64,000 nt of DNA from an uncultured Muribaculaceae bacterium (lineage in GTDB: Bacteria; Bacillota_I; Bacilli_A; RF39; UBA660): assembly GCA_964370475.1 (NCBI GenBank), contig CAYJJI010000003.1, positions 14,389 to 78,388 of the forward strand, in the 5' to 3' direction. A model generated the notes under the pieces. The model had not been told where the DNA came from. It worked only from the letters and a program-made list of their open reading frames with translations, and did not search any database. Shown piece after piece: positions 59,043-59,618 of the stretch; within the stretch, counting starts at the first letter, position 1; the number at the start of each line of letters is the position of its first letter. Made by a program: the position numbers and the translations under genes.

Positions 59043-59618
59043 TTATTCTCTTTTATTTTTTCTTTTTTTAGGCTTTGGTGTAACCTCTTCTTCATCTTCG
59101 TCAGTTCCATATTTTATTTCTATTATTAATGCATATATTTGATAGATAAATATTAGGAAACAAGGTACTACTATAACAAATAAGAATACCCATGTTGATT
59201 GGATTATTGCTAAAAACGTTCCAATTCCTTTATATACTTCTGTTGCTTCTCCAGCAACATATGCCATTGTAAATTGTGTCCCGTTTTCATAAGATATTCC
59301 GCCTTCATCAACGAATACTTCACCGATTATTCCGAAGTCTAATTCGATTGAGTCATCTTCCATTTTGCGATAACCAAATATTTCATCTCCTACTTGAATT
59401 TTATCAAGTCTTTTAGCTTTTACTATTACTAAGTCGCCTTCTTCATATTTAGTTGAAGATATGTTGTTGTTTATTACTACTAGAGTTGTATCTCCAAATT
59501 GAGGTACTCCATAATCATTATGATTTAATAATACTATTGACATTAATATTGCAAATGCAAAGAACAATACTACTACAGTTGCTATTATTATTTTTTTTAC
59601 TATTTTCATTTTTACCAC
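59043..59618 (-). CDS. SipW-like pseudo-peptidase (same TM-domain-TM-basic-tail architecture, catalytic Ser and His absent)
   Basis: 191 aa. VPQFGDTTLVV replaces the SGSMEP box and no His box is present. IQVGDEIFGY parallels IKVGDAISY of the canonical SipW. Confidence 0.45.
   Translation of the reverse strand: MVKMKIVKKIIIATVVVLFFAFAILMSIVLLNHNDYGVPQFGDTTLVVINNNISSTKYEEGDLVIVKAKRLDKIQVGDEIFGYRKMEDDSIELDFGIIGEVFVDEGGISYENGTQFTMAYVAGEATEVYKGIGTFLAIIQSTWVFLFVIVVPCFLIFIYQIYALIIEIKYGTDEDEEEVTPKPKKRKNKRE

Follow-up and report, generated by a model that had tools for sequence, protein, structure and literature searches.

We analyzed a 64,000-nucleotide stretch of contig CAYJJI010000003.1 (assembly GCA_964370475.1, positions 14,389 to 78,388 of the forward strand; hereafter the window) from an uncultured bacterium that GTDB places in RF39 (UBA660), and we focus here on a short gene on its minus strand that we call X. 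Comparison of sequence profiles indicates that X is a full-length homolog of the catalytic SipW signal peptidase encoded in the same window and that it is not an active member of the endoplasmic reticulum (ER)-type signal peptidase I family (S26B), as it has lost the complete Ser-His-Asp triad. The gene is under strong purifying selection, and this selection acts mainly on the second of its two transmembrane (TM) helices. We think it probable that X serves as a non-catalytic membrane accessory subunit of a SipW-dependent export and assembly apparatus for TasA-like fiber proteins.

At the level of single sequences, the resemblance of X to SipW is weak. BLASTP aligned X with the canonical SipW of the window at 29% identity over 80 residues (E = 0.004), and X matched the NCBIfam models TIGR02228 (E = 0.015; 15.2 bits, under the cutoff of 51.85) and Bacillus SipW (E = 0.46). 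A Pfam scan of X found nothing significant, its sub-threshold matches (e.g., TMEM208 and ATP-synt_8) being spurious; a PADLOC scan gave no match, and a search of PDB sequences with a profile of the X family returned just a chance match to urease (E = 0.083). We collected 198 homologs of X, all of them unnamed or annotated as "hypothetical" and about 175 residues long, and 337 homologs of the canonical SipW, and we aligned 36 of the former (alignment A1) and 30 of the latter (alignment A2). When the two alignments were compared with hhalign, they matched with 98% probability and an E value of 2.7e-13 over 169 columns spanning TM helix 1, the outer domain, and TM helix 2. The second TM helices align with each other, including a Pro and a Q/E position. 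Among the ORFs (open reading frames) of the window, a hidden Markov model (HMM) built from A2 picked up X at an E value of 2.5e-7, and three ORFs, no more, matched the SipW family: the canonical SipW, the N terminus of a much longer ORF, and X. A preliminary description of this DNA had called X a third SipW paralog, and the profile comparisons agree with it.

The predicted structure points in the same direction. In an AlphaFold2 model of X (pLDDT [predicted local distance difference test], 81.6), a helix at residues 2 to 31 is followed by a beta domain (39 to 129) and a second helix (132 to 170); residue numbers refer throughout to a 191-residue translation counted from a GTG at position 59618. 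The top PDB matches of the model in Foldseek were SEC11A (7p2p_A; E = 2.9e-3), SEC11C (7p2q_A), and then SipA of Streptococcus pyogenes (4n31_A). The extracytoplasmic domain of the model has the S26 fold, and the structural motifs Y58, G61-D62, G77-D78, and Y83 are kept. The parallel drawn earlier between IQVGDEIFGY of X and IKVGDAISY of the canonical SipW recurs in the BLASTP, hhalign, and hmmalign alignments. The two predicted helices also agree with the TM-domain-TM architecture first attributed to X, but the basic C-terminal tail that had been counted as part of it is not a feature of the family, since most X orthologs stop at about 175 residues, directly after EIKYG.

We located the catalytic positions by way of the human proteins SEC11A and SEC11C. 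In an alignment of A2 with these proteins, SGSMEP fell on SGSMEP, ITHEV on IVHRV, and EDP on the VDD region. From established knowledge of SEC11 and SipW, we take these SEC11 motifs to carry the catalytic Ser, His, and Asp, which makes S53, H96, and D122 the catalytic positions of the window SipW. Both hhalign and hmmalign place these three residues opposite N52, D88, and N112 of X, and the segment that bears the His is nine residues shorter in X than in the active SipW. The loss of Ser and His that the preliminary description had reported is therefore borne out, and the third catalytic residue, Asp, is gone as well. That description had, however, taken VPQFGDTTL as the equivalent of the Ser box. 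This segment is about 10 residues out of register and pairs with the preceding strand, SFFNLRMFS; the equivalent of TGSMEP is NNNISST.

Neither catalytic column of Ser or His is fixed in the X family, in which the Ser-aligned column varies among N/H/K/E/D and the His-aligned column among D/K/N/S/E. We also examined 150 representatives, taken as the best matches, in clusters of 50% identity, from a search of 1.84 billion cluster representatives. In these, the Ser column holds D/E/K/N, with Ser in 5 of 150, and the His column holds K/N/D/S/E/G and in no case His. N112 is a near-invariant Asn among close X orthologs and is followed by an invariant G113. The Ser box is absent from all 85 X orthologs of the loci that we fetched. 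An alternative Ser/His pair in register with the catalytic positions was looked for by alignment, and none was found; in neither the 36 orthologs of A1 nor the 150 representatives does the outer domain contain an invariant Ser, His, or Lys. S54 (S/A/N/T/V) and S55 (S/N/R) vary in A1, and the sole His of X, H33, is not conserved there. In the canonical SipW family (A2), the catalytic residues are invariant, and in the heads of fusion-type SipWs, the Ser, Met, His, and Asp are invariant in 55/55 orthologs.

The X gene shows no sign of decay. Its ORF is intact in 85/85 loci with a labeled copy (164 to 215 residues, the shortest cut by contig ends), and the pairwise ratio of nonsynonymous to synonymous substitution rates (dN/dS; Nei-Gojobori method, pairs with dS of 0.05 to 1.0) lies between 0.03 and 0.2. 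The catalytic SipW has a dN/dS of 0.05 to 0.2 in the same genome pairs, which is indistinguishable from that of X. Both checks that the preliminary description had proposed, for frameshifts in orthologs and for dN/dS, thus spoke for an intact gene.

Where the constraint lies differs between X and the active enzymes. We compared mean column identity in the same 47 genomes, counting also the columns that were at least 95% conserved. The outer-domain core had an identity of 0.44 in X (7/88 columns), versus 0.61 in the canonical SipW (25/97) and 0.59 in the fusion-type SipW head (20/84). The TM helix 2 region had an identity of 0.70 in X (12/39 columns), versus 0.53 in the canonical SipW (6/37) and 0.53 in the fusion-type head (3/29). 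In X, TM helix 2 has taken over from the outer domain as the main site of constraint; it reads SxWxFLFxxxVPCFLIFIYQIYALIIEIKYG, and its conserved residues are S141, W143, F145, P152, F154, F157, Y159, Y162, L164, E167, and K169.

The ORF found mechanically for X (59043..59618) is intact and encodes 191 residues. Its GTG start falls within the sequence AGGTGG at 59621-59616, which is a ribosome-binding site, and we rejected this GTG as the start codon for that reason. The ATG at 59609 lies at the right spacing behind the ribosome-binding site, and the NCBI protein that is 100% identical to X (P0001) has 188 residues; taken together, these points indicate that the real gene begins at the ATG. 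Upstream, X is separated from a DUF6512 gene by a terminator-like hairpin, so X probably begins its own transcript there. The coordinates of X, its parts, and the neighboring genes are given in Table 1.

Table 1. Features of X and its gene cluster in the window, and the domain-swap loci of a sister lineage (coordinates of the latter are those of the named locus).
Feature	Position	Strand	Basis
Pseudo-SipW gene X, 188 residues from ATG 59609	59043..59609	-	
TM helix 1 of X, residues ~10-31, preceded by a Lys-rich cytoplasmic N terminus	59526..59591	-	AlphaFold2 helix 2-31 and sequence
Extracytoplasmic S26/SEC11-like beta domain of X, residues 32-131	59226..59525	-	hhalign; Foldseek 7p2p_A/7p2q_A/4n31_A; conserved columns
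Ser-box equivalent INNNISST, residues 49-56; N52 at catalytic Ser position	59451..59474	-	hhalign, hmmalign
D88, at catalytic His position	59355..59357	-	hhalign, hmmalign; variable column
N112, at catalytic Asp position (D122 of active SipW)	59283..59285	-	alignments
TM helix 2 region of X, residues 132-170, most conserved part of X	59109..59225	-	A1 alignment, regional conservation
Terminator-like hairpin between DUF6512 gene and X	59677..59696	-	sequence
Active SipW fused to ~570-residue cytoplasmic region (SipWfus)	56720..58930	-	NCBIfam SipW, E 1.6e-19; Ser/His/Asp intact
McrB-like AAA+ GTPase, 507 residues, predicted membrane-anchored, coiled-coil	55197..56720	-	start overlaps SipWfus stop
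DUF2357 (McrC N-terminal domain) protein	54040..55182	-	Pfam PF09823, 25.3 bits, above cutoff
Canonical active SipW, 198 residues, S53/H96/D122	53447..54043	-	TIGR02228, E 1.1e-21; SEC11A/C motif alignment
Secreted protein, 406 residues, SipW/TasA-type N-terminal signal VTYAWFT	52209..53429	-	sequence, conserved position
Secreted protein, 202 residues, TasA-like jelly-roll fold	51543..52151	+ (divergent)	AlphaFold2 model, pLDDT 78
Further cluster genes, including 111- and 554-residue proteins	44652..51297	-	sequences
Four paralogous secreted proteins, VSTFAWF-type signals	50575..51297, 49157..50551, 47887..49131, 46635..47762	-	sequences
Domain-swap locus L086	9805-11874		
Domain-swap locus L087	10001-11956, 17222-18289, 18339-19052		

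In the window, X is followed by an active SipW with a long cytoplasmic extension. Residues ~170 to 736 of this fusion protein form a very acidic low-complexity stretch and then a conserved C-terminal domain without a database match. The next gene encodes a GTPase with matches to the NCBIfam McrB model NF008457 (E = 3.6e-6), to PDB entry 6hz4 (E = 1.9e-5), and to the PADLOC candidate PDC-M26A (E = 3.9e-37). Its residues ~1 to 110 contain hydrophobic segments and a heptad-like stretch, and its motif GTINNDDST aligns without gaps with GLMNTADRS of Escherichia coli McrB, the NNDD fitting both NxD-D and NxxD. The DUF2357 gene comes next and overlaps the start of the canonical SipW gene by 4 nucleotides. 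Two gene pairs are coupled by overlaps of start and stop: the SipW fusion with the GTPase, and the DUF2357 gene with the canonical SipW.

Genes for secreted proteins lie beyond the canonical SipW. Six of these proteins share signals of the SipW/TasA type (VSTFAWF, VTYAWFT, and HTYSRYVA) and have similar C-terminal ends (...F.F..Q). The best PDB match of the 202-residue protein model was the TasA fiber (8aur_A; E = 4.8e-4), and AbpA of archaeal bundling pili (7ueg_A) was also listed, as was CanA. Pfam and NCBIfam searches with the secreted proteins gave nothing significant, apart from a sub-threshold match to the SipW-cognate signal peptide in 46635..47762, and sequence searches of the neighboring secreted proteins against the PDB gave no matches. 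The window as a whole has a G+C content of about 25%. The segment from 32001 to 34000, within an ORF of 900 residues on the plus strand (32228-34930), has the lowest G+C content (0.19) and, by a wide margin, the highest GC skew (+0.48).

The X family is represented by 1,155 cluster representatives at E values of ≤1e-3 and by 380 at E values of ≤1e-10. In a scan of one genome per species, it was present in at least 113 genomes, all of which are uncultured gut-type metagenome-assembled genomes (MAGs) labeled Bacilli, Tenericutes, Mollicutes, or Bacillota. This Bacilli-type cluster occurs in many MAG records from bulk TPA submissions (L004, L005, L007, and others) that bear the title "uncultured Muribaculaceae bacterium," almost certainly a wrong taxonomic label.

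The gene order around X recurs across the fetched loci. It typically begins with two secreted proteins resembling o414 and o375 of the window, proteins of ~50 and ~550 residues, U1224, U181, and U299, and then X; after X come the SipW fusion, the McrB-like GTPase, the DUF2357 protein, the canonical SipW, the 406-residue secreted protein, and, on the opposite strand, the 202-residue secreted protein. U1224 (~1,100 to 1,230 residues), U181 (~180 residues), and U299 (~250 to 350 residues) are conserved secreted proteins (e.g., L003, 4783-9926). The SipW fusion lies directly downstream of X in 46/67 loci, and U299 lies directly upstream in 64 of 73. Reverse look-ups that started from homologs of the active SipWs recovered X upstream at the expected position. 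In a minority of genomes, X remains with the upstream block while SipW is absent within 10 kb.

The cluster is rearranged in the window and in the loci most closely related to it (L004, L005, L007, L011, L017, and L031). U1224, U181, and U299 were not found in the 64-kb window, and the genes upstream of X are instead the DUF6512 gene and addA/addB, from which we conclude that the cluster was rearranged in the lineage of the window. The o240/o464/o414/o375 genes come after the 202-residue gene in the window; in most other genomes, homologs of the genes in 44652..51297 are found on the upstream side of X.

A sister lineage links X to the SipW fusion in another way. Four distant members of the X family (P0269, P0270, P0299, and P0377) are 616 to 689 residues long. 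Their heads are of the X type, scoring 107 to 167 bits with the A1 HMM versus 13 to 31 bits with the active-SipW HMM and <18 bits with an HMM of the fusion heads, and the triad is absent. In phmmer comparisons, their tails proved homologous to the cytoplasmic part of the window's SipW fusion (E values of 3e-21 to 7e-7). In L086-L088, this fusion with a dead head fills the slot directly before the GTPase; in the same lineage, the fusion-type active head is a short protein of 236 residues, immediately downstream of a second X paralog. The swap loci indicate that X and a fusion-type SipW stay adjacent, whichever of the two carries the cytoplasmic domain. Such evidence, of the Rosetta-stone type, suggests that a single assembly comprises both heads, the dead and the active one, together with the cytoplasmic domain.

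We propose the following mechanism for X as an accessory subunit. X is a pseudo-enzyme that keeps an N-in topology with two TM helices and a folded outer beta domain and has lost the catalytic residues. Through its highly conserved TM helix 2, it would pair with the active SipW of the fusion type, including the cytoplasmic domain of that protein; as translation of this SipW is predicted to be coupled to that of a membrane-anchored McrB/McrC-like GTPase module, X would thereby be linked to the module. In this position, it could hold or place the signal peptide or the N-terminal strand of fiber subunits without cleaving them. We infer that X may pair physically with the active SipW, bind peptide, and act in fiber assembly. 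The preliminary description had supposed that X is retained as a non-catalytic subunit (scaffold, chaperone, or regulator of the active SipWs); synteny (46/67 loci), the domain swap, and constraint that has shifted to TM helix 2 all argue for its retention, without catalysis, within the SipW machinery.

Several observations weigh against this proposal. The Foldseek matches of the X model are modest (E = 3e-3; TM-scores of 0.4 to 0.5), and the TasA-like assignment of the 202-residue protein comes with low TM-scores (0.32 to 0.35). There is a promoter-like site ahead of the gene next to X, and weak terminator-like elements flank X on both sides; with an apparent promoter of its own and such elements around it, co-transcription of X with the SipW fusion is not obvious in the window. 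X is more tightly linked to U299/U181/U1224 (64/73) than to the SipW fusion, so its primary partner could be there. In L001, L010, L048, L050, L051, and L067, other genes follow X, and no SipW lies within 10 kb.

Some of these points bear on another explanation, which we regard as doubtful although worth weighing: X may be a stand-alone chaperone or anchor resembling SipA, not paired with the SipWs, whose cleft binds fiber subunits (e.g., U299/U181/U1224) and presents them for polymerization or anchors the fiber base. The strongest linkage of X is indeed to the upstream secreted-protein genes, with which it stays where the SipW block is absent, and its third-best structural match, SipA, is a non-catalytic protein essential for pilus polymerization (PMC4049620). 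The outer domain, where a binding cleft would lie, is nevertheless the least constrained part of X and TM helix 2 the most constrained. In the swap, moreover, an X head is joined to the cytoplasmic domain known from the SipW fusion and occupies the slot directly before the GTPase, and the window keeps X with none of U299, U181, and U1224 in 64 kb. That X acts as a decoy or negative regulator, which would compete for SipW-type signal peptides or titrate the active enzymes and so limit processing and fiber assembly, seems improbable to us. It shares the topology and fold of the active enzymes and lacks their catalytic residues, and its own promoter-like and terminator-like elements in the window would permit separate regulation; a structural component would better explain the near-obligate, stoichiometric-looking gene order across many species and the dead head that a sister lineage has joined to the cytoplasmic domain.

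We consider it very unlikely that X has kept peptidase activity by means of non-canonical catalytic residues. Catalytic residues have migrated in some pseudo-enzymes, and X has S54 and S55 beside the old Ser position and a near-invariant S141. However, S54, S55, and H33 are not conserved, the outer domain has no invariant Lys or His, S141 lies at the membrane end of TM helix 2 with no conserved base close by, and the His-bearing segment is shortened; as no Ser, His, or Lys is conserved, we ruled out an alternative catalytic pair. Least credible of all is that X is a pseudogene in decay, or else a protein with two TM helices that is unrelated to SipW and resembles it by chance. The weak single-sequence matches, with none in Pfam, might suggest so, but decay is ruled out by the dN/dS values and the ORFs intact in 85 loci, and hundreds of clusters carry the family; chance similarity is ruled out by the full-length hhalign match, beside which stands the fold match to SEC11 and SipA.

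A larger picture, which we offer as a tentative possibility, would make the dead SipW the membrane adaptor of a new filament machine in gut Bacilli that are poor in cell wall and have small genomes; in it, a heteromeric pair of active and inactive SipWs, either of which can carry the cytoplasmic domain, would couple a membrane-anchored McrBC-like GTPase motor to the processing and donor-strand polymerization of TasA-like subunits. This pilus system, driven by nucleoside triphosphates and scaffolded by signal peptidases, would differ from the sortase, type IV, chaperone-usher, and passive TasA pathways. To our knowledge, non-catalytic signal peptidase homologs are known only from the P-type (LepB-like) lineage, to which SipA and SpsA belong. 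X represents a large unannotated family (at least 380 clusters at 50% identity and E values of ≤1e-10) for which Pfam and NCBIfam have no model, and an independent loss of catalysis in the ER-type SipW/SEC11 lineage. Purifying selection, the constraint on the TM helix, and a natural swap that ties X to an active SipW and a McrBC-like GTPase provide handles on its function. The family offers a concrete starting point for testing how CoCoPALM systems work and how surface fibers are built by the abundant uncultured Bacilli of the gut, and it may illuminate how non-catalytic subunits organize signal peptidase complexes generally.

Within the ER-type family, X stands beside SipW of Bacillus subtilis (encoded in tapA-sipW-tasA) and SEC11. 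By profile it belongs to the same family, with the TM-domain-TM topology, the motifs Y..GD and VGD..Y, and the Pro of TM helix 2, and like B. subtilis SipW it has TasA-like proteins as genomic partners. Unlike X, with its N52, D88, and N112, SipW and SEC11 are active and have the Ser, His, and Asp. Literature searches for inactive SipW paralogs found none, and those for clusters of SipW, TasA-like proteins, and ATPases found nothing relevant.

Among inactive signal peptidases, SipA of S. pyogenes (LepA; 4n31) has had its catalytic Ser and Lys replaced by Asp and Gly and has retained its cleft, and a role as chaperone or scaffold has been proposed (PMC4049620). X resembles it in that a peptidase fold without catalytic residues is kept within a surface-filament gene cluster. 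SipA, however, is a P-type (Ser-Lys, LepB-like) protein with one N-terminal TM helix and works with covalent pili assembled by sortase, whereas X is of the ER type (Ser-His-Asp), has two TM helices with the strongest constraint in the second, and has as its genomic neighbors TasA-like proteins, two active SipWs, and a McrBC-like module. SpsA of Staphylococcus aureus is an inactive type I signal peptidase paralog beside the active SpsB; it lacks both catalytic residues and showed no activity in assays, and its function is debated to the point that it has been suspected to be a pseudogene product (PMC12414704). Like SpsA, X is an inactive paralog near an active enzyme. SpsA, however, is of the P type, has a single TM helix, and adjoins a housekeeping enzyme, whereas X is of the ER type, clearly under purifying selection, and located in a specialized cluster. 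X thus has the marks of this kind of protein (the fold kept, the catalytic residues replaced, and an intact gene under selection) and does not share its descent: as its closest sequence relatives are the ER-type SipW and SEC11, the catalytic loss is independent, and X is a functional analog, not an ortholog, of SipA and SpsA.

The cluster as a whole appears to fit the CoCoPALM class, which Bell et al. named in their paper on CoCoNuTs and described in two sentences, deferring to a later paper. Our literature search found no such follow-up publication, and signal peptidase goes unmentioned in the supplementary material of the CoCoNuT paper. As in that class, the window has a McrB-like GTPase, a DUF2357/McrC homolog, and proteins of the signal peptidase family. 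The GTPases of the class are further marked by an N terminus with an FtsB-like TM segment and a coiled coil and by a shortened NxD motif; the hydrophobic and heptad-like segments of the window protein may correspond to the former, and its NNDD is compatible with both NxD and NxxD. The GTPase and DUF2357/McrC genes are adjacent and conserved in order, three SipW-family genes flank the pair, and the arrangement is conserved in dozens of genomes. A dead signal peptidase member, TasA-like cargo, and the domain swap are absent from the CoCoPALM description. Inactive signal peptidase homologs were already known from SipA and SpsA; what is new here is an ER-type variant with two TM helices in a CoCoPALM-like cluster, and its interest would be greater if the entire locus proves to be a GTPase-coupled fiber machine.

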